Source of the DNA: Thermoanaerobaculia bacterium
Lineage (GTDB): Bacteria; Acidobacteriota; Thermoanaerobaculia; Multivoradales; UBA5704
Assembly (NCBI GenBank): GCA_036399915.1
Contig: DASWME010000219.1
Coordinates: forward strand, 343-64,342
Length of the DNA: 64,000 bases
Direction: 5' to 3'
Shown here piece by piece: positions 13,741 to 45,815 of the stretch. Positions within the stretch are counted from its first letter, which is position 1. Every line of letters starts with the position of its first letter. The position numbers and the translations under genes are program-made. The notes under the pieces are model-generated. The model was not told the DNA's origin. It searched no databases and saw only the letters and a program-made list of their open reading frames with translations.

Positions 13741-13786
13741 GCCCTCGCACCAAAGGAACACGCTCCGGCCAGGGCTGGCCCGCCCT

Positions 13787-13975
13787 GGAGGGGCGGAATT
13801 TGAATAGCCCGGGGCGGAAGCCCCGGGTACGGATGCCCAGACCAACCCGTCGAGCCCCGAAGGGGCGGCAGGCGCAGGTCCGGCCTCCTGATGTCGCCCT
13901 TTCAGGGCTCAACCGTGATTGTTGGCGCTCCGTTCCCGGGGCTTCCGCCCCGGGCTATTCAAATCCTGCCCCTCC
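13787..13975. repeat. REP/MITE-like element, family B: two 41-bp arms in inverted orientation around a 107-bp core
   Basis: Arm 1 (13787-13827) is GGAGGGGCGGAATTTGAATAGCCCGGGGCGGAAGCCCCGGG. Arm 2 (13935-13975) is its reverse complement with 2-3 mismatches. Each arm contains an 8-bp hairpin CCCGGGGC-GGAA-GCCCCGGG (a GNRA loop in one orientation). Confidence 0.8.
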
Positions 13976-31939: not shown

Positions 31940-34822
31940 CTACCGTCCTGACGGCACCCCGCTCACCGTCCGCGCCGTGAGGCCCTTCCTGCCCGCCACC
32001 TCGACCTCGATCCTCCCCCGCCCTTCCGCGGTCTCCCTGGGATAGAACGCCAGCGTGTATTGGCTGCGCAGCTCGGAGAGGATCTGCTGGTAGACGCCGG
32101 AGAGGTCCTGGTCTCGCTCGATGAAGTAGACCTGCCCGCCCCCCGCTTCGGTAAGACGCTGGAACTTGGCCGCGGAGGGCTCGGAGAGAAAGCCGCCGTC
32201 CTCGCCGCGGGCCGCTCGCGGGTTCGCCACGATCAGGTAGATCGGGATGCCGCTCCCGCGGGCGGCGGCGAGACAGGAGGAGAAGGAGAAGCGCTCCCCT
32301 TCGTCGATGCCGTCCGAGTAGACCACCAGGGCCTTGCGGCCGGAGATCCCCCGGAGCTGCGCCAGCGAGAAGGAGATGGCGTTCCAGAGCGCCGTGCCGC
32401 CGTCGGCCGTCAGGGCGCGCAGAGAGGAGGAGACGGCTGCCAGGTCGCGGGTCACGGGCTTGACCAGCCGGGGCTCGGTGTCGAAGTCGATCAGCAGGGC
32501 CCGGTCGCGGTTGGTGAGGCCGCTCTCCAGCAGCGAGGCGACGGCCTTGCGCACGTCCGGGAGCTTCAAGAACATGCTGGCCGAGGAGTCGATGGCGAGC
32601 GCCACGGTGAGCGGCAGCTCGCCGGCGTTCTCGAAGGCCGAGATCTCCTGCTCCCGGCCGTCCTGGCGGAGGCGGAACGCCTCCTTCGGCAGCCCCGGCA
32701 CCGGCTTGCCCGAGGGGTCGGTCACCACCACCGCGAGCTGGACGAGGCGCACGTCGATCCGGTCGCCGATGTCAGAGGCGTTGAGCGCCACCGCGTCCTC
32801 GGCCGTGGAGCCGTCCTCCAGCCGGGCGGCGACTTTCAGGTATCCCACCGGCTGGCCCCGGGGCACCATGACGCGGTGGCGGAAAGGCGGCGCGTAGAGG
32901 GTCCCGGCCAGCTCGTCGTTCCAGAAGAACTCCACCCGCTCGACGCGCTTGCCGGACGGAGCCCGCACGTCCGCTTCCACTTCGACCGGGCCGACGCCCT
33001 TCTTCGCGGCCGGCTCCACGATGCGCACCTGGAACGCCTCGCCCGGGTCGTTGATCCGCACCGAGTCGCGGGCCAGCTCCCTGCCGGCAGCGTCGTAGGC
33101 CACGGCCTGAACGACCTGCGGCCGGATGCGGCGGCCGAGGTCGACCTCGGTTTCGCAGGGGAGCCCCGGGCACGCGCTGGCCGCGCGGTCGCCCGCCTTG
33201 ACCTCGACGCGGGCGATCCCCTCTCCCCCACCGTTGACCTTGAGCCGGACCCTGCCGGCCAGGGCATCCCCGGACGGCGGCACGATCCGCAGTACGGGGC
33301 GGCTGACGGAGAGGGCGTCCGGCTCCGCGGCCTGCCCTGAGAGGGTCACCACCTGGCCTCCCCAGGCCCCGCCGGCGAGCGGCCCGACGAGCACGGCGAC
33401 GGCTTCGGCTTCCTCCGGCAGCGGGACGGAGATTCGATAGGCGCCGGCCTCGGGGCCCGCAAGGTCCGCGGTCAGGAGGCGGTGCGACGCGGCGGCGCTC
33501 CCCGGCCCGGCGACCGTCAGGCGGAAGGGGCCGTGGATGTCCGGGGATTCGATGCGCAGATCGAGCGTCCCCCGCCGCTCGGCGGGGGGAGCCGTGGCGT
33601 CCGGCTGGATCCGGGCCGAGATCTCCAGCCCCCCTCCGTCTTCTTCCCCTTCGAGCAGCCTGCGGGCTCGGGCCGCGGCGACCTCCTCTGGAATGCCCGC
33701 CGCGTCCCACCGCCGCGCCCGCACGCTGAGGTCCGAGCGCTGAGCGCGCACCTCCACGGCGCGGGGCCGTCCGTCCGTCTCCCGGGGCGCCTCGTAGCGT
33801 AGCCAGAAGCGGGAGCGCAGGCGCGCGAGGGCTCCGGCGAGGTTCTGGGCCTGGAGGACGACCTCGCCGCCGGTGGCTTCCGCCAGCCAGGCGAGGGGCT
33901 CATCGGGAGCCAGCAGCGCCGGGAGCGGCGGCGGCTGGTCCTTACCCGGCTCCTTGGGCTTCTTGCGGCCCAGGGGAATGGTGACGCCAATGGGCACCTG
34001 CGGCGTCGAGCTGGGCCGGATCCGCCGCAGGTCCGGGAGATTCGAGTCGCCCACGGGAAGAGGCAGGGCCGTCCAGCCGAGGGCCGCGGCCGTGCGCACC
34101 GTCTCCAGGGCGGTCTTCTCGAGGGCTCCCTCCTGGCGCTGAGAGCCCGGGGCGTAGAACGCCGCAGGGTCGCGGTCGAACCCGTCGCTCACCAGCAGCA
34201 GGGCGCGAGGGCCGTCGCCGGTCTGGGCCAGGAGCCACTCGGCGAAGGCGTCCTGCTGGCGCCGGACGAGCCGCGCCTCGGTCTCGACCGCTTCGGCGGC
34301 CCGCTCGGCCGGGCTCTCCCCCTGCGCCGCAGCCTCCTCGCGGAACCTCTGCCGCAGGACCCGCAGGTCGTCCCGGCCCTCGCCGGAGAGCCACAGGCGG
34401 GAGAGGGCTTCGTCGATCATCTTGACGTCCCGGGTCGCCGGCAGGACCTCCCGCGGCTGGGGCTCCGCCACCACCACCTCGACCGTGCCGAGGGCCGCCA
34501 GCTCGGGCGCCCGCTGGGCGAGGGCGCCAGCCGCCGTCCGCAGGGTGCGCGAGCTGGAGAGGACCCGGTCGACGTAGACGACGATGCGCCAGGGGGGCGA
34601 GACCGGAGCCAGGTCGAGGATACGGCGGGGCTGGCCGTCCTCCAGGACGACGAGGTCTTCCGATTTGATGGCCTGAGGGACCTCGCCCTTGCGGTCGAGG
34701 ATCTGGACGGGGAGCTCGATTCGGGCCAGGGCCGGAGGAGGCGCTGGGAGCGGCGCCTCCGAAGCCGGAGTCTGCGTGGCGAGGAGGACGGCGGACAGGA
34801 GGAGAACCGATGCGGAAATCAC
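31940..34822 (-). CDS. large secreted protein with a C-terminal VWA domain and a degenerate N-terminal VWFA-related module
   Basis: 960 aa with signal peptide MISASVLLLSAVLLATQTPASEA. The C-terminal part reads ...VRLVQLAVVVTDPSGKPVPGLPKEAFRLRQDGREQEISAFE...LTVALAIDSSASM (MIDAS DxSxS)...GGTALWNAI...ALVVYSDGIDE.... The N-terminal part repeats the ...LDRKGEVPQAIKSEDLVVLEDGQPRRI... pattern. Confidence 0.7.
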   Translation of the reverse strand: MISASVLLLSAVLLATQTPASEAPLPAPPPALARIELPVQILDRKGEVPQAIKSEDLVVLEDGQPRRILDLAPVSPPWRIVVYVDRVLSSSRTLRTAAGALAQRAPELAALGTVEVVVAEPQPREVLPATRDVKMIDEALSRLWLSGEGRDDLRVLRQRFREEAAAQGESPAERAAEAVETEARLVRRQQDAFAEWLLAQTGDGPRALLLVSDGFDRDPAAFYAPGSQRQEGALEKTALETVRTAAALGWTALPLPVGDSNLPDLRRIRPSSTPQVPIGVTIPLGRKKPKEPGKDQPPPLPALLAPDEPLAWLAEATGGEVVLQAQNLAGALARLRSRFWLRYEAPRETDGRPRAVEVRAQRSDLSVRARRWDAAGIPEEVAAARARRLLEGEEDGGGLEISARIQPDATAPPAERRGTLDLRIESPDIHGPFRLTVAGPGSAAASHRLLTADLAGPEAGAYRISVPLPEEAEAVAVLVGPLAGGAWGGQVVTLSGQAAEPDALSVSRPVLRIVPPSGDALAGRVRLKVNGGGEGIARVEVKAGDRAASACPGLPCETEVDLGRRIRPQVVQAVAYDAAGRELARDSVRINDPGEAFQVRIVEPAAKKGVGPVEVEADVRAPSGKRVERVEFFWNDELAGTLYAPPFRHRVMVPRGQPVGYLKVAARLEDGSTAEDAVALNASDIGDRIDVRLVQLAVVVTDPSGKPVPGLPKEAFRLRQDGREQEISAFENAGELPLTVALAIDSSASMFLKLPDVRKAVASLLESGLTNRDRALLIDFDTEPRLVKPVTRDLAAVSSSLRALTADGGTALWNAISFSLAQLRGISGRKALVVYSDGIDEGERFSFSSCLAAARGSGIPIYLIVANPRAARGEDGGFLSEPSAAKFQRLTEAGGGQVYFIERDQDLSGVYQQILSELRSQYTLAFYPRETAEGRGRIEVEVAGRKGLTARTVSGVPSGR

Positions 34823-36035: not shown

Positions 36036-39000
36036 CTACTGCCGCTCCACGCAATAGCTGCAGGGGCGCTTGCCCTTGGCGAGGGCATCCTTCAGGGTCA
36101 TCGCGGCGCCCCCGGCCTTGACGAACGTGCAGCGCCGCTGGTGGTAGCGGTCGCCGAATTCGGTCACGAACACGGAGTCCTCTGGCCGCAGGGCCGCGCA
36201 CGTCGCCGCCAACAGGTCGACGACGTCATCGTGGCCGGCCTCGCCGGCCAGAATCGAGGCGGTCGCCGGGTGCTCCCCTCCGGACACGGCTTCCGCGACT
36301 TTGCAGGCCCCGCGGTCGAGGAGCTGGCGGACGATCTCCAGATCGCCGGTGCGCGCTGCGCCCATCAGCGCCGTCCGGCCGTCGCGCCCCTTGCCGGTGA
36401 CGTCGGCTTGGGCGGCAAGCAGGTCGAGGACGATGCCGCGGTGGTCCCCACCGGCTCCCCCGTCGGCGGCGAAGGCGGCGAGGATCAGAGCCGAGTCGTC
36501 CCGCGAACGGCGGGCATTGACGTTGACTCCGTCGCGCAGCAGCTCGCCGACCTTCTGTCGGTCTCCCTGCTCGGCCGCACGCAGGAGCTGCGCCTCCTTC
36601 TCTCCTTCCTTGGCCCCCGCCCGCCGCAGCAGGTCTTCGACGGCCGCGTGTTCTTCCAGGATGGCCGCCATCAGCGGCGTGTTGCCGAAGGCGTCGCGCG
36701 CGTTGAAATCGGCGCCCGCCGCGAGCAGCACCTCCACCGCCGCCGCCTGGCCCCGCAAGGACGCCAGGATCAAGGCGGTGGCGCCGTTGGCGTCGCGAGC
36801 GTCGACGGGGGCTTGGCCGGCCAGCAGCGCGCGCAGGACGTCGGCGCGTCCGGCCTCGGCCGCGACCATCAGCGCCGTGCGGCCTTTCTCCCCCGTGGCC
36901 CCCACCGGGACCTGGCGCGCGATCAGGGCCTCCACCACCGCCTGGTGCCCCTCCCGCGCCGCCAGCATCATGGCCGTATCGCCCCGGCGGTCTCTGAGAT
37001 TGGGGTTCGCACTCTGGGCCAGCAGCCTCTCGACGATGCCCGCGTGGCCGGCGGTGGCGGCGGCCAGCAGCGGTGGCCGCCCTCCTTCGCCGGCCAGATC
37101 GACCGCGGCGCCCTTCGCCAGGAGCGCCTCCACCAGGCCGGCGGCGCCCAGGCTCGCCGCGACCGAGAGGGCCGTGCGCCCGTGGGGGCCGCGCAACTCG
37201 GGATCGGCGCCGGCGTCGAGCAGCGCCGCGGCCACCTGCGGGTAGCCACCCCGGCAGGCTCCTAGCAACGCCGTCCGCCGCTGCGTCCCCAGGGCGTTGA
37301 CCTCGGCACCGGCGGCGAGGAGCTGGCGGACGCGCGCGATCTGCCCCTTCTCGGCGGCGCGGATCAGGTCCGCCTCCGCCCGGCCCGCGGTGGCGCCGTA
37401 CTTCACCAGGAGATTTGAGAGAGCCGTGTGGCCCTCCAGGAGCGCGATCAGCAAGGGCGTGCGGCCGTGCTGGTCGCGGGCATCAGGGTCCGCCTTGGCC
37501 TCGAGCAGAGCGCGCGCCGTCTGCACGTGGCCCGCCAGGCAGGCGGCCATCAGCGGCGTGCGGCCGCCCTTGCCTTCCAGGTTGGGCGAGGCGCCGTGCT
37601 TGAGCAGGTGGCGGACGACCTGCAGATGGCCGCCGGCGGCGGCCCGCTCGAGGGCGGAGACGCGCTGCGACGAGCGGTCGTTGACGTTGGCGCCGAATTC
37701 GACCAGCGCCTTCACGACCTCGAGGTGGCCGCGCTCTGCGGCCGCCAGCAGCGGCGACCTGCCGTGGCTGGCTCGCGCTCCCGCCGGCACGCCCGCGGCG
37801 AGGAGCTCGCGGACGCGCTCCGCGTCGTCCCGGCGCGCGGCGAGGAAGAGCTCCGCCTCCTGCTCGCCGCGCCTCGCTCCGTGCCGGCGGAGGAGGTCCG
37901 CCATCTCTTTGCCGCCGGTCAGGACGGCCGACATCAGCGGGCTCTCGCCGTCGCGGGAGACGGCGTTGACGTCCGCTCCCGCCGCGATCAACTGGCGGAC
38001 GACGTCGAGATGACCGTTCTCGACGGCCAGCATGAGCGGCGTGCGACCGTCGCGGCGCTGAACGTCGACGCGGGCGCGAAAGGCGAGCAGCTCGGCGACG
38101 GCCTCGCCGTGGCCCTCCCGGCTGGCCTCGTGCAGAGCGGTGCCGCCGTCGCCGCGGCGGGCATCGGCCTTCGCCCCGGCCGCGAGCAGCGCGCGGACCG
38201 TCGCGTAATCGTTGTGGCGGGCCGCGAGGGCCAGCGGCGCACGCCCCTGGTCGTCCGTCTGCTCCAGGAGCGGGCGCTGGGCGGCCGGCGCCGCCAGCAG
38301 CAGACCGACCACGGCGCTGCGCCCCTGGCGGACGGCGGCCAGCAGGGCCGAGCGTCCTCCGCGGCCCGCCACGCCGGCCCGCGCGCCGGCCGCCAGGAGG
38401 GCCCGCACCTCCGCCTCGTTGCCCTGCTCGGCCGCGAGGATCAGCTTCGCCTCCGCCTCTCCGGCCCGCGCGCCTCTGGCGCGGAGCAGGCCGGCGATAT
38501 CGTCGTAGCCCTCCAGCAGCGCCGCCATTAGAGGGGTCTGGCCCCGCGCGTCGGCACGCTCGGGATTGGCGCCGGCCGCCAGCAGCCGCTCTACCACGCC
38601 CCGTTGCCCGCTCTCCACCGCGGCCAGCAGAGGCGAGGCGCCGTCCCGGCCTCCGAGGTTGACGTCCGCCTGATAACGCAGAAGCTCGTCGACGATCTCG
38701 ACGCTGCCCTCGCGGCTGGCTACATGTAGCGCGGCCTCCCCCTCCGCATCCTGGCGGTCGACGTTCACGCCGCGCGCGAGCAGCGCCCGGGTGCTGCGCA
38801 CCGCGCGCTGTCCGACGGCCACCTGGAGAGGGGCACGGCCGTCGGCGTCGGGCAAGTCGAGATCGGCGCCATGCGCGGCCAAGCCTTCCACGACCTCTGC
38901 GTGGTCCGCCTCGGCCGCCCTGCTGGCGAAGGTACGGCCGTCCGGGCCGACGGCGTTGGCGTTCAGGCGAGCCAGGAACTCCTCCAGGAGCCGTTGCGAC

Positions 39001-39923
39001 GCCGGGTCCCCCGCCCTGAATCCGGCGAGGAAGCTCTGAAACTGCGCCGCGGCCGCGTCCTCCGCGCCGCGGCGTCCGTGGGCGCCGTACTCGAGGAGCA
39101 AAGCCTCGACCGCGCGGCTGCCCGGCTGCCGGTGGGCGATGTCGTAGGTCGTGTCGCCGTTGCCGTCCACGGCGTTGATTCTGGCCTTGTAGTTGTTGAC
39201 CCTGGTCTTGTAGTGCAGGAGCAGCGCCCGGGCGCAGCCCACGTTGCCCGACTCGGCGGCGGCCATCAGCGCCGTTCGCCTCTTCAGGTTCGTGTCGTCG
39301 GGATCGGCCCCGGCGGCGAGGAGGGCTTCGACGATCGCCGGATTGCCGTCGGGCTGGCCGGCGACCTCGATCAACGCCGTGCTTCCTTCTTGAGTCCTGG
39401 CACTCAGCTTGACCCGCTTCTCGATCTCCGCGCGTACTCGGTCGAGATCGCCGTCTTGCGCCGCGAGGAGCAGGCGGGTCCCCGACGCGGGCGCCGGCCG
39501 CGCGCCGGCCGCGATCAGCTCGGTTTCGAGGTCCTCCCGCCGCACCAGGATTGCCGCGTCGAGAGGGGCGAGGCCTCCGAGCGTCGTGCGGTTCGGATCC
39601 GCAGGCTTCCTGCCGAGCCGGCGTCGGAGAAGGAGACGGACGGTCTCGAACTGCCCCTGGAGGACCGCCACCACCAGGGCCGTATCGCCTCCCTCGCTCG
39701 GCAGGTCGGGATGCATGCCCCCCCGGAGGAATCGCCGGATGATGTCGAGCTGCCGGTCGCCGTTGCGCACGCGGCCGAGGAAGGCCTCGGGAGTGAAGGA
39801 GATCCCCCGCTCGGTCAGCCAGTGGCGGTCTCGAAACGCGATGAACTGGTAGGCGCCGTACAGTCCGCCGAGCACTGGGATCAACAGCCCGATGAAGGTC
39901 AGGATCTGGAGGAGAAGCGACAT
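36036..39923 (-). CDS. giant membrane-anchored ankyrin-repeat protein (1295 aa) with C-terminal Ada-like H-x3-C-x22-C-x2-C zinc motif
   Basis: N-terminal TM MSLLLQILTFIGLLIPVLGGLYGAYQFIAF. Then about 30 or more ANK units by eye (G.TPLM.A...GH..VV..LL..GA.VN motif repeated throughout). The C-terminus is VFVTEFGDRYHQRRCTFVKAGGAAMTLKDALAKGKRPCSYCVERQ. AGGAG lies 7 nt before the ATG. Confidence 0.85.
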   Translation of the reverse strand: MSLLLQILTFIGLLIPVLGGLYGAYQFIAFRDRHWLTERGISFTPEAFLGRVRNGDRQLDIIRRFLRGGMHPDLPSEGGDTALVVAVLQGQFETVRLLLRRRLGRKPADPNRTTLGGLAPLDAAILVRREDLETELIAAGARPAPASGTRLLLAAQDGDLDRVRAEIEKRVKLSARTQEGSTALIEVAGQPDGNPAIVEALLAAGADPDDTNLKRRTALMAAAESGNVGCARALLLHYKTRVNNYKARINAVDGNGDTTYDIAHRQPGSRAVEALLLEYGAHGRRGAEDAAAAQFQSFLAGFRAGDPASQRLLEEFLARLNANAVGPDGRTFASRAAEADHAEVVEGLAAHGADLDLPDADGRAPLQVAVGQRAVRSTRALLARGVNVDRQDAEGEAALHVASREGSVEIVDELLRYQADVNLGGRDGASPLLAAVESGQRGVVERLLAAGANPERADARGQTPLMAALLEGYDDIAGLLRARGARAGEAEAKLILAAEQGNEAEVRALLAAGARAGVAGRGGRSALLAAVRQGRSAVVGLLLAAPAAQRPLLEQTDDQGRAPLALAARHNDYATVRALLAAGAKADARRGDGGTALHEASREGHGEAVAELLAFRARVDVQRRDGRTPLMLAVENGHLDVVRQLIAAGADVNAVSRDGESPLMSAVLTGGKEMADLLRRHGARRGEQEAELFLAARRDDAERVRELLAAGVPAGARASHGRSPLLAAAERGHLEVVKALVEFGANVNDRSSQRVSALERAAAGGHLQVVRHLLKHGASPNLEGKGGRTPLMAACLAGHVQTARALLEAKADPDARDQHGRTPLLIALLEGHTALSNLLVKYGATAGRAEADLIRAAEKGQIARVRQLLAAGAEVNALGTQRRTALLGACRGGYPQVAAALLDAGADPELRGPHGRTALSVAASLGAAGLVEALLAKGAAVDLAGEGGRPPLLAAATAGHAGIVERLLAQSANPNLRDRRGDTAMMLAAREGHQAVVEALIARQVPVGATGEKGRTALMVAAEAGRADVLRALLAGQAPVDARDANGATALILASLRGQAAAVEVLLAAGADFNARDAFGNTPLMAAILEEHAAVEDLLRRAGAKEGEKEAQLLRAAEQGDRQKVGELLRDGVNVNARRSRDDSALILAAFAADGGAGGDHRGIVLDLLAAQADVTGKGRDGRTALMGAARTGDLEIVRQLLDRGACKVAEAVSGGEHPATASILAGEAGHDDVVDLLAATCAALRPEDSVFVTEFGDRYHQRRCTFVKAGGAAMTLKDALAKGKRPCSYCVERQ

Positions 39924-39987
39924 CGCGATCTCCTGTCACCCCTCGCGCAGGACAGCTGCGTTTTCCTGGTGTCGGTAGGTATCCTTT

Positions 39988-39996
39988 ATTCTATCA
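39988..39996 (-). promoter_or_regulatory. candidate extended -10 promoter element for the ankyrin gene
   Basis: Minus strand reads TGATAGAAT (TGn-TAGAAT) in an AT-richer patch about 65 nt upstream of ATG 39923. It is flanked by CTATCA...TGATAG. Confidence 0.3.
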
Positions 39997-40203
39997 CCAA
40001 TGCGGAAGCATTTAGCATATGATAGCAGGAATCCCGTGAGGGCGAGACGGCTGTATCATCGGACCTCTCAGTACTCTTGCTCGAGATCCCAAGGGGAGTT
40101 CGGCTGATGTCCAAATTCATATCCTTGTAGTCAGCCTCGCCGTTTTACGTACCGGGGTTTTGCCGCTGCGGGTGATCCACGTGAGGTGGGCTCGAATCCA
40201 CAC

Positions 40204-41445: not shown

Positions 41446-42219
41446 CTAGGCTCCGAGACAAACCGGCTCTACAAGCTCGTGGAGCGCTGAGCCGGCCGCC
41501 AGGAGCCGCTCCCTCACCCGAACCACCTCCCCCACCACGATAGTCGCCGGCGCGCGCAGCCCGGCCCGGGCGACCTCGCCGGCGATGGTCCCCAGGGTCG
41601 CCGCCACGACCCGCTCCTGCGGCAGGGTTCCCTGGGCGATCACCGCGACCGGCGTGTCCGCCCCGCGGCCGTGGAAGAGGAGGTGGGCCGCGATCTCGGG
41701 CAGCCGGGAGAGGCCCATCAGGACGACCAGGGTGTCGGTCCGCGCCAGGGCCGCCCAGTCCTGCCGGTCCCCCTCGGCGCAGTGGCCGGTCACCACGGCG
41801 AAGCCGCCCGCGACCTCCCGGTGGGTGACGGGGATGCCGGCCCGGGCCGGGACGCCGACCGCGCTGCTCACCCCGGGGATGACCTCCCAGGGCACCCCCG
41901 CCTCGGCGCAGGCCAGGGCTTCCTCCGCGCCCCGGCCGAAGACGAACGGGTCGCCCCCCTTGAGCCGCACGACCGTGCGGCCCGCCCGGGCGTGGCGGAC
42001 CAGCAGCGCGTTGATCTCCTCCTGCCGGCAGGCGTGGTCGCCGGGCGCCTTGCCCACGAAGACCCGCTCGGCCCAGGACGGCGCCTCGTTGAGCAGCTCC
42101 GGAGAGACCAGCCGGTCGTAGACCACCACGTCCGCCCGCCGCAGGCGGTCGAGCCCCAGGACCGTGATCAGCCGGGGATCGCCGGGTCCGGCGCCGACCA
42201 GGTAGACGATCCCGCTCAC
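41446..42219 (-). CDS. cobA: uroporphyrinogen-III C-methyltransferase (SUMT)
   Basis: GTG start. VSGIVYLVGAGPGDPRLITVLGLDRLRRADVVVYDRLV...VVRLKGGDPFVFGRGAEE...EVIPGVSSAVGVPARAGIPVTHR.... GTGA overlap with the upstream gene (42216-42219). The track ORF 41446-43305 is a fused over-extension. Confidence 0.9.
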   Translation of the reverse strand: MSGIVYLVGAGPGDPRLITVLGLDRLRRADVVVYDRLVSPELLNEAPSWAERVFVGKAPGDHACRQEEINALLVRHARAGRTVVRLKGGDPFVFGRGAEEALACAEAGVPWEVIPGVSSAVGVPARAGIPVTHREVAGGFAVVTGHCAEGDRQDWAALARTDTLVVLMGLSRLPEIAAHLLFHGRGADTPVAVIAQGTLPQERVVAATLGTIAGEVARAGLRAPATIVVGEVVRVRERLLAAGSALHELVEPVCLGA

Positions 42220-42866
42220 GCGGCGCCGCTTTCCGGCCGCACGCCCAGGATCTCCTCGAACCGGGCGATCGCCGCCTCCTCCTCGCCCCGCTGCAGCAAC
42301 TGGAGGATGTCGGAGTCGATCAGCCGGTACCAGAGGTCCCGCCGGGCCGCGAGGTCCGGCAGGAGCTTGGCGAGCGGCGCGCGGACCGACCCCGCCAGCT
42401 CCAGGAACCGCGCGTGCTCCTGCCCCAGCTCCGACTCCAGCCGCTGCTTGAGGCGCACCGCCAGCGCCGGCGCCTTGCCGTTCGTCGAGATGGCCACCCC
42501 GAGGTCCCCCCTCCGGACGACGGCGGGAGCGATGAAGTCGCAGTGCAGCACGTCGTCCACCGTGTTGACCAGGACGTTGCGCTCCCGGGTCTCCTTCCAG
42601 ATCACGTCCACGATCACCGGGTCCTTCTCGACCACCACGGCGAGGAAGGCCTTGCGGAGGTCCCCCCACCGGTAGCGGCGGGCGATGACGTCGAGCCGTC
42701 CCTCCACCGCCAGGTCCGCCAGGCCCGGCGTGATGTCGGGAGACACCACGGTCACCCGGGCGCCGGCCGTGATCAGCCCTCTCGCCTTCTCCTCCGCCAG
42801 GCCGCAGCCGCCGACGACGACGCAGGGCCGGTCCTTCAGGTCCAGATAGACGGGATAGGGTTGCAC
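42216..42866 (-). CDS. precorrin-2 dehydrogenase / sirohydrochlorin ferrochelatase (SirC/Met8p/CysG-N-like)
   Basis: MQPYPVYLDLKDRPCVVVGGCGLAEEKARGLITAGARVTVVSP...NVLVNTVDDVLHCDFIAPAVVRRGDLGVAISTNGKAPALAVRLKQRLE. Confidence 0.85.
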   Translation of the reverse strand: MQPYPVYLDLKDRPCVVVGGCGLAEEKARGLITAGARVTVVSPDITPGLADLAVEGRLDVIARRYRWGDLRKAFLAVVVEKDPVIVDVIWKETRERNVLVNTVDDVLHCDFIAPAVVRRGDLGVAISTNGKAPALAVRLKQRLESELGQEHARFLELAGSVRAPLAKLLPDLAARRDLWYRLIDSDILQLLQRGEEEAAIARFEEILGVRPESGAA

Positions 42867-42868
42867 GG

Positions 42869-43345
42869 TCAGACCTCCAGGCTCTCGACCGAAACGCCGC
42901 TCCGGTCGATCTCCAGGGTGAGACGGCAGCGGTCCGTCCGCAGGCCGAGGCGGAAGACCCCGGGCCCCTGGACGGTGAAGAGCATCCCTTCGAGGGCCTG
43001 TCCCTCCAGGGTGGCGAGAGCCTCGTTGACCGCCTGGGTGGTCCGGCGGGCCGCGGCGCCTCCCGGGGTCTGGTGGAAGAGGCGCAGCAAGGCCTGCTCG
43101 CTCTCGGCCCCGTGCACGCGCCGGGTGCGGCCGGTCTCGAGCGTGATCTCGAGCACCCTTTCGAGACGCCCGAGAAGGTCCTGCCCCACCTCCCCATCCG
43201 CGACGGCGGTGGCCAGCTCGTCGTAGGGACCGCGCAGGCGCGGGTCCCGCAGCGAGCCCGCGAGGGTCTCGATCTCCTCCAAGAGAACCTCCCGCTGGGC
43301 CGCATCGAGCGACAGGGCGCCGGGCGTGGGGGCCAGCCCGTTCAC
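42869..43345 (-). CDS. uncharacterised 158-aa protein embedded in the sulfite-reduction/siroheme operon
   Basis: GTG 43345 overlaps the cysH stop (GTGA, 43342-43345). Its own stop is 2 nt before the sirC-like start. VNGLAPTPGALSLDAAQREVLLEEIETLAGSLRDPRLRGPYDELATAVADGE...LFTVQGPGVFRLGLRTDRCRLTLEIDRSGVSVESLEV. No family recognised. Confidence 0.55.
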   Translation of the reverse strand: MNGLAPTPGALSLDAAQREVLLEEIETLAGSLRDPRLRGPYDELATAVADGEVGQDLLGRLERVLEITLETGRTRRVHGAESEQALLRLFHQTPGGAAARRTTQAVNEALATLEGQALEGMLFTVQGPGVFRLGLRTDRCRLTLEIDRSGVSVESLEV

Positions 43346-44175
43346 CGGACGGTCCTCAAGGGTCCATGCCCCTGCGGTTGCAGCAGGGCTTCGAGCTCGT
43401 GCTCGAACGCGCCGGTCTCGATCGGGCAGTGGATGCCGCACTCCTTGGGCGCGTTCTTCTCCCACCACCAGCGGCCGGCGCGCGGGTCTTCGCCCGCCGC
43501 CGTGGCCCGCGTGCAAGGTGCGCAGCCGATCGAGGTGAATCCCTTGGCGTAGAGCGGGTGCTCGGGTACGTCGTGGGCCCGGTTGTACTCCTTCACCTCC
43601 TCCAGGGTCCAATCCGCGAGGGGGTTGATCTTGGCGAGCCCGCCGTGATCGTGGTCGATCTCGATCTTGCGGATGTTGGCCCGGCTCGCCCACTGGTCCC
43701 GGCGCAGACCGGTGATCCAGGCGTCGAGCCCCTCCAGCACGCCGCGGATCGGCTCCACCTTGCGCACGTTGCAGCACAGGAGGCGCGCCTGGACGCTGCG
43801 CTGGAAGAGGTTGGGCCCGAAGCGCCGCACCATCGACTCCACCTGGCGGGCGTCGGGGAAGTAGACCTCCACCTCGATGCCGTACCGCTTGCGGACCTCC
43901 TCCATCACGTCGTAGGTCTCCTGCGGCAGGCGGCCGGTGTCCACGGTGAAGAGCCGCACGCCGGGGTCGAGCCGCCACGCCATGTCGAGGATGGCCATGC
44001 CCTCGGCCTGGAAGCTGGTACAAATCGCGACCTGCGAGCCCCAGCGGTCGAGCGCCCAGGCGATGACTTCCTGCGGAGTCGCAAAGTCGAACTCCACGGC
44101 CAACTGCCCGGCCTCGAACTCGTCCAACAGATCTCTCGGGTCCATTCGGATCGCGGTCGCTTTTTCCAGAATCAT
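43342..44175 (-). CDS. cysH: assimilatory adenylylsulfate (APS)/PAPS reductase, Fe-S-cluster type
   Basis: MILEKATA...VAICTSFQAEGMAILDMA...FTVDTGRLPQETY...LLCCNVRKVEP...SIGCAPCTRA...KECGIH. The CC...CxxC cysteines are typical of APS reductases. Confidence 0.88.
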   Translation of the reverse strand: MILEKATAIRMDPRDLLDEFEAGQLAVEFDFATPQEVIAWALDRWGSQVAICTSFQAEGMAILDMAWRLDPGVRLFTVDTGRLPQETYDVMEEVRKRYGIEVEVYFPDARQVESMVRRFGPNLFQRSVQARLLCCNVRKVEPIRGVLEGLDAWITGLRRDQWASRANIRKIEIDHDHGGLAKINPLADWTLEEVKEYNRAHDVPEHPLYAKGFTSIGCAPCTRATAAGEDPRAGRWWWEKNAPKECGIHCPIETGAFEHELEALLQPQGHGPLRTVR

Positions 44176-44186
44176 CGTTCTTCCTT

Positions 44187-45815
44187 TCACGCTTGAACGG
44201 AAACGGCTTCTCCCAGACCCATCGCCACCAGCTCCTCGTCGCCCTGGCGGGCGAAGAACTGCTGGATGCGCTCCCCCTCCCGGCGCCCGTCGAGATAGGC
44301 GCGGAACAGTCGCTCGATCACCCGGTGGACCTCGGTCCCCGGCACCCGCTTCAAGACCGGCCGGCCGATGGCCGCGTCCCGCCCGAGGCCGCCGCGCAGG
44401 AAGAGGTCGTAGCCGTGCAGCCTCTCGCCCGCCGGGCCGCGCTCGCGCAGCGTCGTCCCCTGCAGGCCGATGTCGCCGATCCAGTGGTGGGCGCAGGCGT
44501 GCGGGCAGCCGTCGAGGTTGAGCCGCAGGCCCGCCGCCTGCTGGCCGAAGACTCCCTCCAGGTGCTCGACGATCTCCTGGAGCTTCCCCTTGGTCTCGGC
44601 TACCGTGTAGTTGCAGAAGGGATCGCCCGTGCAGGCGATGCTCGCTCCCCGCAGCCCCATGCCCGCCCGCGGAAAGCCGAGGCCCTCCACGGCGCGCACC
44701 GCCTCGTCCACCCTCTCCTCCGGGATCTGGCTCAGGATGAAGTTCTGCCGCCGCGTGAGGCGGATCTCGCCGCCCCACTCCTCGACGAGGTCGGCCAGGC
44801 GCAGCATGGTCTCGCCGTTCATCAATCCCAGGTGGACCGGGAAGCCGGCGTAGAAGAGCCCCGCCTGGCGCTGGGGATGGATTCCGGTGTGGTCGTGCTC
44901 CTCCACGGGCGCGGGCGGCACCGAGCCATCGTCCAGCCGCCGGTCGAGCTTTTCCTCCACCCGGGCGCGGAAGGCTCCGGCCCCGAGGTCGTGCACCATG
45001 AACTTGAGGCGCGCCTTGGCCCGCGACAGGCGGTACCTGAGGTCCTCCCGCCAGACGTCCACGATGGCCCGCAGCACCGGCAGGGCTTCCTCCGCCGGCA
45101 CCCACACCCCGAGGTCGTCCGCCAAGCGCGGCCAGCTGGCGAGCCCGCCGCCCACCCGCACGGCGAAGCCCGGCCGGCCCTCCCGCAGCATGCCGATGAG
45201 GGCGATGCAATGGATCTCCGGCGCGTTGCACTGGTGGGGGCAGGCGGCGATGGTGATCTTGTGCTTGCGCGGCAGGTCCGAGTACTCGCGGTTGCGGATG
45301 AAGAACTCCGTCGCCTGCTCGATCAGGCCCTGGACCTCGAACAGCTCGCCGCGGTCGATGCCGGCCACCGGGCAGCCGGTGATGTTGCGCACGTTGTCGC
45401 CGCAGGCGCCGGTGGTGGTCATGCCCCCCTCGTCGAGGGCGCGCAGCACCTCGGGGAGCTTCGCCAGCTCGATCCAGTGGAGCTGGATGTTCTGCCGCGT
45501 GGTCAGCTCGCCATACCCGCGGCCGAACCGCTGGGAGATGCCGCCGATGACGCGCAGCTTCGCCGGGGTGAGGACGCCGCCGGGCACCTTCACCCGCAGC
45601 ATGAAGTACCCGACCTTCGGCTTGTCGTGGTACAGGCCGTACCACTGCATGCGCACGAAGTCCTCCTCGGGCACCGCCTCGTAGCCGGCCGCGATCATGG
45701 CAGGCAGGTCGTGGATCACGTCGAGGCCGCCCTTCTCGTGCTTCAGGCGCTCCACGAAGTTGCGCTTGCGGATCAGGTCCCAGGTGATCTCCGCCTGGGG
45801 CTCTCCTACTGGCAT
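44187..45815 (-). CDS. ferredoxin-dependent sulfite (nitrite/sulfite) reductase hemoprotein
   Basis: ...VRMQWYGLYHDKPKVGYFMLRVKVPGGVLTPAKLRVIGGISQRFGRGYGELTTRQNIQLHWI...TTGACGDNVRNITGCP...ACTGDPFCNY...GCPHACAHHW. ATG 45815 is preceded by GGAGGT (the track start GTG 45827 is 4 codons upstream). Confidence 0.9.
   Translation of the reverse strand: MPVGEPQAEITWDLIRKRNFVERLKHEKGGLDVIHDLPAMIAAGYEAVPEEDFVRMQWYGLYHDKPKVGYFMLRVKVPGGVLTPAKLRVIGGISQRFGRGYGELTTRQNIQLHWIELAKLPEVLRALDEGGMTTTGACGDNVRNITGCPVAGIDRGELFEVQGLIEQATEFFIRNREYSDLPRKHKITIAACPHQCNAPEIHCIALIGMLREGRPGFAVRVGGGLASWPRLADDLGVWVPAEEALPVLRAIVDVWREDLRYRLSRAKARLKFMVHDLGAGAFRARVEEKLDRRLDDGSVPPAPVEEHDHTGIHPQRQAGLFYAGFPVHLGLMNGETMLRLADLVEEWGGEIRLTRRQNFILSQIPEERVDEAVRAVEGLGFPRAGMGLRGASIACTGDPFCNYTVAETKGKLQEIVEHLEGVFGQQAAGLRLNLDGCPHACAHHWIGDIGLQGTTLRERGPAGERLHGYDLFLRGGLGRDAAIGRPVLKRVPGTEVHRVIERLFRAYLDGRREGERIQQFFARQGDEELVAMGLGEAVSVQA

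Follow-up and report, generated by a model that had tools for sequence, protein, structure and literature searches.

The window analysed in this work, i.e. a stretch of 64,000 nucleotides from contig DASWME010000219.1 of a Thermoanaerobaculia bacterium (Acidobacteriota), contains a gene for a 1295-residue protein in which a single N-terminal hydrophobic helix, a very long array of ankyrin (ANK) repeats and a short C-terminal zinc-type domain follow each other. We consider this architecture to be highly probable, and the sequence comparisons place the tail, in a divergent form, in the ADA_N-like superfamily, which includes the N-terminal domain of Escherichia coli Ada. As a whole, the protein would in our reading be a cytoplasmic scaffold, tethered to the membrane and ending in a nucleic-acid-binding zinc knuckle, and we assign to this reading a probability of roughly 0.45. 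Each of its parts is of a known kind (the ANK repeats, the N-terminal anchor, the ADA_N-like domain), and their combination is rare and uncharacterised. The gene had been singled out in a preliminary description made from the sequence alone; the coordinates of the features are collected in Table 1.

The C-terminal zinc-type tail

The motif H-x3-C-x22-C-x2-C, which the preliminary description had placed at 36051-36143, is present in the tail (H1261, C1265, C1288 and C1291), and the spacing C-x3-C-x26-C-x2-C with which it was compared agrees with the MG1655 ada gene, i.e. C38-x3-C42-x26-C69-x2-C72. The motif is more than a coincidence, as none of the four ligand residues varies over 13 family tails or over 70 domain instances. 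In the 13 ANK-family tails V, T, G, Y, H and three Cys residues are kept without exception, and the conserved core can be written as V-x-V-T-x2-G-x2-Y-H-x3-C ... A-x3-G-x-[RP]-P-C-x2-C. The comparison with known structures relied on an alignment of 70 sequences with the window's own tail at its head, in which the H, C, C and C positions do not vary. When the resulting profile was compared with the PDB, the four top matches were Ada N-terminal domains (1adn/1eyf, 1u8b, 1zgw and 1wpk; E=0.003-0.008). An hhalign comparison of the same profile with residues 27-77 of E. coli Ada gave a probability of 95.4% (E=1.9e-8), and the ANK-family tails alone gave 90.3%; H1261, C1265, C1288 and C1291 align on Cys38, Cys42, Cys69 and Cys72 of Ada, respectively. 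The AlphaFold2 (AF2) model of the tail has a mean predicted local distance difference test (pLDDT) score of 86.7 and the order E-E-E-H-H, i.e. three strands followed by two short helices. Against the PDB, a smaller profile of 13 tail sequences mainly picked up designed 'Pizza' propellers in spurious matches of 11 residues, a problem that the 70-sequence profile resolved, and phmmer searches of the tail against the PDB returned chance matches only.

The preliminary description had guessed at an Ada-like zinc site, and had allowed for a tail bearing no likeness to zinc-binding domains. With hhalign probabilities of 90.3-95.4% and the ligands in register, a likeness of this kind is present and the guess is right at the superfamily level, but the tail is no orphan, as the superfamily has already been described: Pei et al. 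(2025, PMC12353581) defined ADA_N-like domains as an ECOD X-group, and their own members score 82-98% in comparison with the 95.4% of the tail. In their survey the domains are mostly C-terminal and occur in ribosomal protein L4, Cwp27, ComEC and the transmembrane protein ArfC; the architectures they list are LGFP, ComEC, CW_binding_2, L4 and ArfC, and an ANK fusion is not among them.

Zinc is predicted to be coordinated in the tail by His1261, Cys1265, Cys1288 and Cys1291. Cys38 is reportedly the methyl acceptor of Ada, a result credited to He et al. in 2005. His1261 stands at the Cys38 position, which argues against an Ada-type chemistry at that place. In PMC12353581 Cys69 is named as the methyl acceptor of Ada, and its counterpart in the tail, C1288, is retained.

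The profile of the ANK-family tails found 10,390 proteins at E<=1e-3 among 1.84 billion representative proteins. For the most part these would be secreted proteins, with the domain at the C-terminus or in tandem. The best relatives carry 2-16 tandem copies of the motif VYVT-x2-G-x-KYH-x3-C-x~22-A-x3-GY-x-PC-x2-C-xPP. Pfam recognises Ada_Zn_binding in 42 of 110 tail relatives (E<=0.001, best E=9.5e-34) and DUF6233 in 43, and the partner domains seen in more than one of these proteins are SNase (19), PLD-like (2) and metallo-beta-lactamase (2). The gathering cut-off of Ada_Zn_binding (PF02805), 23 bits, is not reached by the tail itself; three of the relatives exceed it individually (P0199 with 27.5, P0131 with 28.1 and P0176 with 24.9 bits), and the cut-off of DUF6233 is reached by relatives as well. 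The domain that NCBIfam calls the 'sunset domain variant' of L17 is probably the same as the ADA_N-like domain. In the literature we found no mention of DUF6233, of the 'sunset domain' in this sense, or of ankyrin together with Thermoanaerobaculia. The domain is very widespread and often arranged in tandem (P0121-P0270): proteins with a length of about 1000 residues carry up to 16 copies, two ligand spacings, H-x3-C and H-x4-C, occur, and one subset of the proteins, which has no Pfam annotation, opens with the conserved segment MATxxxGKLKxxxSKRGIAYKWGDGEIHR.

The ankyrin array and its junctions

Between the anchor and the tail Pfam finds ANK families only, with Ank_2 covering 17 stretches (E=1.5e-168), and the thresholds are passed by a wide margin (548 bits against 27.3 for Ank_2, 401 bits against 21.1 for Ank). 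A hidden Markov model (HMM) built on the protein's own repeats found 34 units, and the manual register, in which degenerate units are counted as well, gave 36 units over residues 45-1245, so the 30-35 repeats that had been estimated by eye are borne out. That this is far more than in typical bacterial ANK proteins holds for cultured genomes; in metagenomes, however, bacterial ANK-only proteins of 1800-2200 residues are numerous.

The four linker strings quoted in the preliminary description are all present in the translation, but the higher-order super-repeats that they were thought to open are not. We scored the linkers against the N-cap and the internal-repeat consensus of designed ankyrin repeat proteins (DARPins), and the N-terminal capping repeat was the better match in three of the four junctions, the fourth being a near tie. 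The linkers are themselves ANK repeats of N-cap type, i.e. domain or cap junctions, and the repeat that precedes each of them consists of 31 residues, without loop and hairpin. Residues 147 and 291 mark two weaker cap-like repeats. The blocks that follow residue 490 contain 6, 5, 8 and 4 repeats, respectively, their mutual identity of 31-47% is ordinary for ANK repeats, and the copies are at most 72% identical at the DNA level; a duplicated super-repeat was rejected on these grounds. The array is a chain of ANK blocks, and the cap-like repeats that connect them have no finger.

The blocks appear to be rigidly connected, judging from the AF2 model of residues 393-850, which contains two of the junctions. 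It has a pLDDT of 93.5, a predicted template modelling score (pTM) of 0.81 and all helix pairs, and the pLDDT does not drop at either junction. Foldseek matched this model both to continuous ankyrins and to engineered rigid DARPin-DARPin fusions, with query template modelling scores (TMq) of at most 0.47 for both.

The size of the protein could also be an artefact of repeat expansion or collapse during assembly, an outcome that the preliminary description had kept in mind. No point in its support was found, and we regard its probability as negligible. Within the gene, the identity between DNA repeats amounts to only 60-72%, and long tandem repeats are absent. Moreover, an independent ortholog (P0001) has exactly 1295 residues, is colinear repeat for repeat including the junctions, with few indels, and is 55% identical by MAFFT and 53% by BLASTP, and a third copy, in another metagenome-assembled genome (MAG; L005), is 52% identical over residues 4-1295. 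Because both orthologs are colinear repeat for repeat, we take the number of repeats to be under selection.

Membrane topology and possible function

The single N-terminal transmembrane helix that had been proposed stands: the hydrophobicity profile peaks within residues 2-30 (Table 1), and the only other 19-residue window with a Kyte-Doolittle mean above 1.6 is found at about residue 917, inside an Ala/Leu-rich ANK repeat, and is not a credible transmembrane segment. The eight close family members keep a clear hydrophobic helix (Kyte-Doolittle values of 1.7-2.5). A hydrophobic segment is present in 12 members, and in each of these there are 3-6 Lys or Arg residues in the 15 residues that follow the helix, as opposed to 0-2 in the N-terminal flank. 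By the positive-inside rule, this distribution points to an N-out/C-in orientation, so that the protein would be a single-pass membrane protein with its N-terminus outside and the ANK array in the cytoplasm.

The opposite topology would make the helix a signal anchor and place the array and the tail in the periplasm or beyond, where the tail might bind extracellular DNA or envelope components. AnkB of Pseudomonas aeruginosa, a periplasmic ANK protein, can be counted for it. So can the signal peptides that a crude test detected in 73 of the 150 best-scoring tail relatives, as well as the C. difficile ADA_N-like proteins predicted to be secreted (PMC12353581). Yet the basic residues lie after and not before the helix in 12 of 12 members, the 29-residue hydrophobic stretch is too long for the h-region of a signal peptide, and there is neither a basic n-region nor an AxA cleavage site. 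We therefore consider the reversed orientation improbable.

With the cytoplasmic orientation, the protein would be a resident membrane protein of the acidobacterium, anchored in the cytoplasmic membrane by its single N-terminal helix with the N-terminus outside and the remaining approximately 1265 residues in the cytoplasm. The roughly 36 ANK repeats, which the hairpin-less cap-like repeats divide into about seven blocks with apparently rigid connections, may then form a long scaffold for protein-protein interactions, extending from the cytoplasmic side of the membrane; the scaffold role is suggested by what ANK repeats generally do. The 47-residue zinc domain at the far end could act as a small basic knuckle that binds nucleic acid, and the protein might hold or recruit nucleic acids (DNA or RNA) or their bound proteins at the membrane. 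The N-terminal domain of Ada binds DNA, and the PDB entries 1u8b and 1zgw are DNA complexes. These complexes, the fusions of the relatives to nucleases, ComEC and ribosomal proteins, and the net charge of the tail (+4) suggest nucleic-acid binding; taken separately, binding and tethering remain a tentative proposal, somewhat short of an even chance.

It is also conceivable that the architecture is the same and that the zinc tail is a structural end-cap or a protein-docking knob, in which case the scaffold at the membrane would serve protein-protein contacts only. Pei et al. report no function for ADA_N-like domains outside Ada and describe members in which the zinc site is lost (PMC12353581). 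Among the tail relatives there are many small secreted proteins that contain the domain in tandem and have no nuclease domain, and the net charge varies from -9 to +10 over the wider domain family. The recurrent fusions to nucleases, ComEC and ribosomal proteins and the mostly basic ANK-family tails (eight of them have charges of +4, +3, +6, +1, +4, -1, +3 and +5) speak against a tail of this kind, and on balance we find it rather unlikely.

A few further points weigh against the proposal of a cytoplasmic scaffold with a nucleic-acid-binding knuckle, in addition to the absence of a demonstrated function for the domain outside Ada and to the frequent signal peptides among the relatives, which sit awkwardly with a cytoplasmic tail. 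Firstly, the last 84 residues had no direct match in Pfam or NCBIfam at E<=10. Secondly, although the Foldseek matches of the tail model in the PDB are Ada entries only (1zgw, 1u8b and 1wpk; TMq 0.51-0.59), their E-values are about 1 and not significant alone. Thirdly, a conserved binding groove was not found in the array, where the identity between orthologs is 36% at the positions randomised in DARPins, as compared to 40% on the convex surface and 73% in the framework. Finally, no neighbour in the window adjoins any homolog and the neighbours differ at each of the four homolog loci, so the surroundings give no hint of a pathway.

It is instructive to set the protein beside systems that are better known. 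The ADA_N-like domains (PF02805, DUF6233 PF19746 and the NCBI 'sunset domain') resemble the modelled fold of the tail, the ligand register of Ada Cys38/42/69/72 is the same, and most of them are C-terminal, as is the tail. The differences are that its first ligand is a His instead of Cys, that the spacer has 22 residues instead of 26, and that its sequence has diverged too far to be matched by Pfam directly. With the N-domain of E. coli Ada (1adn, 1eyf, 1u8b, 1zgw and 1wpk) the tail would have in common the zinc-binding beta-sheet and a C-terminal helix with C-x2-C, and the segment A-x3-G-x-RPC-x2-C is nearly identical in both. The zinc domain is N-terminal in Ada whereas it is C-terminal in the ANK protein, and Ada carries an AraC-type helix-turn-helix and an O6-alkylguanine-DNA alkyltransferase domain, neither of which was found here by Pfam or NCBIfam. 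The layout in which a transmembrane helix stands at the N-terminus and an ADA_N-like domain at the C-terminus is shared with ArfC of Mycobacterium tuberculosis (PMC12353581); ArfC, however, is a small protein with a degraded zinc site, while in the ANK protein the helix and the domain are separated by some 1200 residues of repeats and none of the four ligands is missing.

For the array, the best matches in sequence and structure are ankyrin-R/B (24 repeats) and NOMPC (29 repeats), which are membrane-associated tethers with more than 20 stacked repeats. The bacterial array differs from them in that its TMq to continuous solenoids is only about 0.45, in that it is broken by the hairpin-less cap-like repeats, and in that the protein is anchored by its own transmembrane helix and has no ZU5, death or channel domain. 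The giant ANK-only proteins of uncultured bacteria (1800-2200 residues; P0024-P0041, among them P0028 from Sulfuricella) have long arrays that open with N-cap repeats as well, but they lack the transmembrane anchor and the zinc tail.

The comparison with ankyrin and NOMPC invites a more daring idea, namely that the protein is a tether or spring between membrane and nucleoid, with the transmembrane helix at one end and the zinc knuckle gripping DNA, possibly damaged or alkylated, at the other. As a rough estimate, about 36 ANK repeats would span some 30 nm when fully extended, if approximately 1 nm is assumed per repeat. This idea is highly speculative and we hold it to be quite improbable; if it were true, the protein would be a bacterial analogue of the ankyrin/NOMPC membrane-cytoskeleton tethers and would provide the first functional role of an ADA_N-like domain outside Ada. 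If the broader reading as a membrane-tethered scaffold is right, we would be dealing with a very long bacterial ANK array that has its own membrane anchor, and with the first ANK fusion of an ADA_N-like domain. The family could then tell us if ANK solenoids serve bacteria as tethers inside the cell, and the sequence of anchor, spacer and knuckle would be a convenient test case for the ligands of ADA_N-like domains. The value lies mainly in annotation and domain classification; no phenotype or pathway is attached to the protein and no long-standing question is opened by it.

Distribution, gene and neighbourhood

The family is small, with about 17 members found in all when fragments and the window copy are included, and the named ones come from Thermoanaerobaculia. 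An exact copy of the protein was not found in public assemblies. When the complete protein was compared with the database, twelve of its 120 best relatives shared the tail, and most of these have an N-terminal hydrophobic segment as well. Among 185,579 species-representative genomes full orthologs were found only in two Thermoanaerobaculia MAGs, L005 (52% identity) and L006 (57%, partial), the remaining matches being generic ANK proteins, and a C-terminal alignment compared with a set of 5.8 billion proteins added only two family fragments (P0271 and P0272). A sister subfamily of 1782-2210 residues (P0004, P0008, P0010, P0013 and P0014) combines ANK repeats with the same zinc tail, which is followed there by the conserved motif (K/A/G)(I/F)DW(T/M/K)C, whose Cys ends the protein. 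In most of this subfamily the hydrophobic segment at the N-terminus is weaker (Kyte-Doolittle values of 0.8-1.4), with the exception of P0014 (2.16). P0004, a distant family member, is labelled Thermoanaerobaculia, too.

Large ANK proteins had been associated in the preliminary description with host-directed effectors or with conflict systems, and neither association fares well. As part of an anti-phage or other conflict system, the protein would use its array to sense invader proteins. It is matched by the PADLOC models PDC-M72A, Ankyrin and MzaA and by the NCBIfam MzaA model, the ANK binding face evolves fast, and one homolog (P0002) lies about 3 kb from a gene for a 1191-residue TIR-CHAT-NB-ARC-TPR protein of the conflict-system type (L002, 6882-10457, plus strand). 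The matches, however, come from the repeats only, with 285 bits against a cut-off of 800 for MzaA and a PADLOC MzaA match that spans 80 residues, and there is neither an effector domain nor the sigma-70 domain of MzaA in the protein, where Pfam sees ANK families only. Neither the window nor the four homolog loci have a recurring partner gene, no PADLOC model (mzaB-E included) matches a neighbour, and the neighbours in the window are a TetR regulator, citrate synthase and genes of sulfur and tetrapyrrole metabolism. This makes a role in defence very unlikely. Between P0002 and the TIR-CHAT-NB-ARC-TPR gene there are a LytTR two-component system and LiaF-like genes, and the pairing is seen at no other locus.

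A secreted effector directed at eukaryotes, like the Ank proteins of Legionella, Coxiella and Wolbachia, is suggested by matches to the NCBIfam Dot/Icm Ank models (AnkG/H/Y/X and others, with E-values down to 1e-72) and by the eukaryotic ANK proteins among the database matches. Here too the matches are at the level of the repeats and spread over several stretches, and the scores are 2-10 times under the equivalog cut-offs, the best being 243.7 bits against 500 for AnkG. The named family members come from MAGs of Thermoanaerobaculia, an environmental lineage that we take to be free-living, the family has kept its membrane anchor, the Acido-Lenti-1 RNA in the window fits an acidobacterial origin, and the GC content of the gene (0.72-0.74) is near that of the surrounding genome (0.65-0.74 in the window). 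We regard an effector as extremely unlikely.

The reading frame is on firm ground: the open reading frame (ORF) of 1295 residues on the minus strand begins with an ATG, and a longer frame is ruled out by an in-frame TGA at 39938-39936. The span 36036-39996 given in the preliminary description therefore contains a real ORF, but its end overshoots the ATG by 73 nucleotides and is out of frame; it happens to coincide with the tentative TGaTAGAAT element, a pattern match at which the consensus scan called no sigma-70 site by its own criteria. The promoter and terminator scan made no call on the strand of the gene. Among the ORFs of the window it is the only one with ANK repeats or an ADA_N-like tail.

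Table 1. Features of the ANK gene, its product and its surroundings in the window (all on the minus strand; positions are those of the 64,000-nucleotide stretch)
Feature	Coordinates	Basis and remarks
Complete coding sequence, 1295 residues + stop	36036..39923	ORF list and translation; membrane anchor, ANK array, ADA_N-like tail
Hydrophobic anchor, residues 2-30 (SLLLQILTFIGLLIPVLGGLYGAYQFIAF), followed by RDRH	39834..39920	Kyte-Doolittle 19-residue mean, peak 2.31
ANK-repeat array, residues 45-1245, about 34-36 repeats	36189..39791	Pfam, self-HMM, manual register
Junction 1, residues 484-513 (GARAGEAEAKLILAAEQGNEAEVRALLAAG)	38385..38474	N-cap-type ANK repeat without beta-hairpin; N-cap 52 against internal consensus 40; kept in P0001 and more distant homologs; first helix elongated (H97-108) in AF2 model, no pLDDT drop
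Junction 2, residues 682-711 (GARRGEQEAELFLAARRDDAERVRELLAAG)	37791..37880	present in translation; kept in P0001; elongated helix H295-305 in AF2 model
Junction 3, residues 843-872 (GATAGRAEADLIRAAEKGQIARVRQLLAAG)	37308..37397	N-cap 59 against internal consensus 52; kept in P0001
Junction 4, residues 1103-1132 (GAKEGEKEAQLLRAAEQGDRQKVGELLRDG)	36528..36617	N-cap 47 against 41; kept in P0001
Putative ADA_N-like zinc domain, residues 1249-1295 (47 residues)	36039..36179	profile comparison, AF2, Foldseek, PDB profile search
Predicted ligand H1261	36141-36143	
Predicted ligand C1265	36129-36131	
Predicted ligand C1288	36060-36062	
Predicted ligand C1291	36051-36053	
Shine-Dalgarno-like AGGAG	39930..39934	6 nucleotides 5' of ATG, read directly from sequence
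TGaTAGAAT, extended -10-like, tentative	39988..39996	65 nucleotides 5' of ATG; pattern match only
Acido-Lenti-1 RNA (Rfam RF01687)	13781-13827	39.6 bits, gathering threshold 37
960-residue protein, VWA_2 (residues 741-838) and weak Big_7	31940-34822	two genes downstream of the ANK gene
619-residue ORF, TP_methylase	41446-43305	Pfam match only at residues 367-574
767-residue ORF, PAPS_reduct	43342-45645	Pfam match only at residues 539-714

The ANK gene does not belong to an operon, and an AT-richer spacer of 280 nucleotides (39924-40203) separates it from the citrate synthase gene. According to Pfam, its neighbours in the window are a TetR regulator, a VWA/Ig protein, citrate synthase, a tetrapyrrole methylase, a PAPS reductase and an amidohydrolase. 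The VWA_2 gene is not kept beside the ANK homologs. Apart from the Acido-Lenti-1 RNA there is no further Rfam match in the window, and no tRNA was found there. The Pfam matches of the TP_methylase and PAPS_reduct ORFs leave N-terminal parts of 360-540 residues uncovered, which may be either over-extended ORFs in DNA of 70% GC or real fusions.

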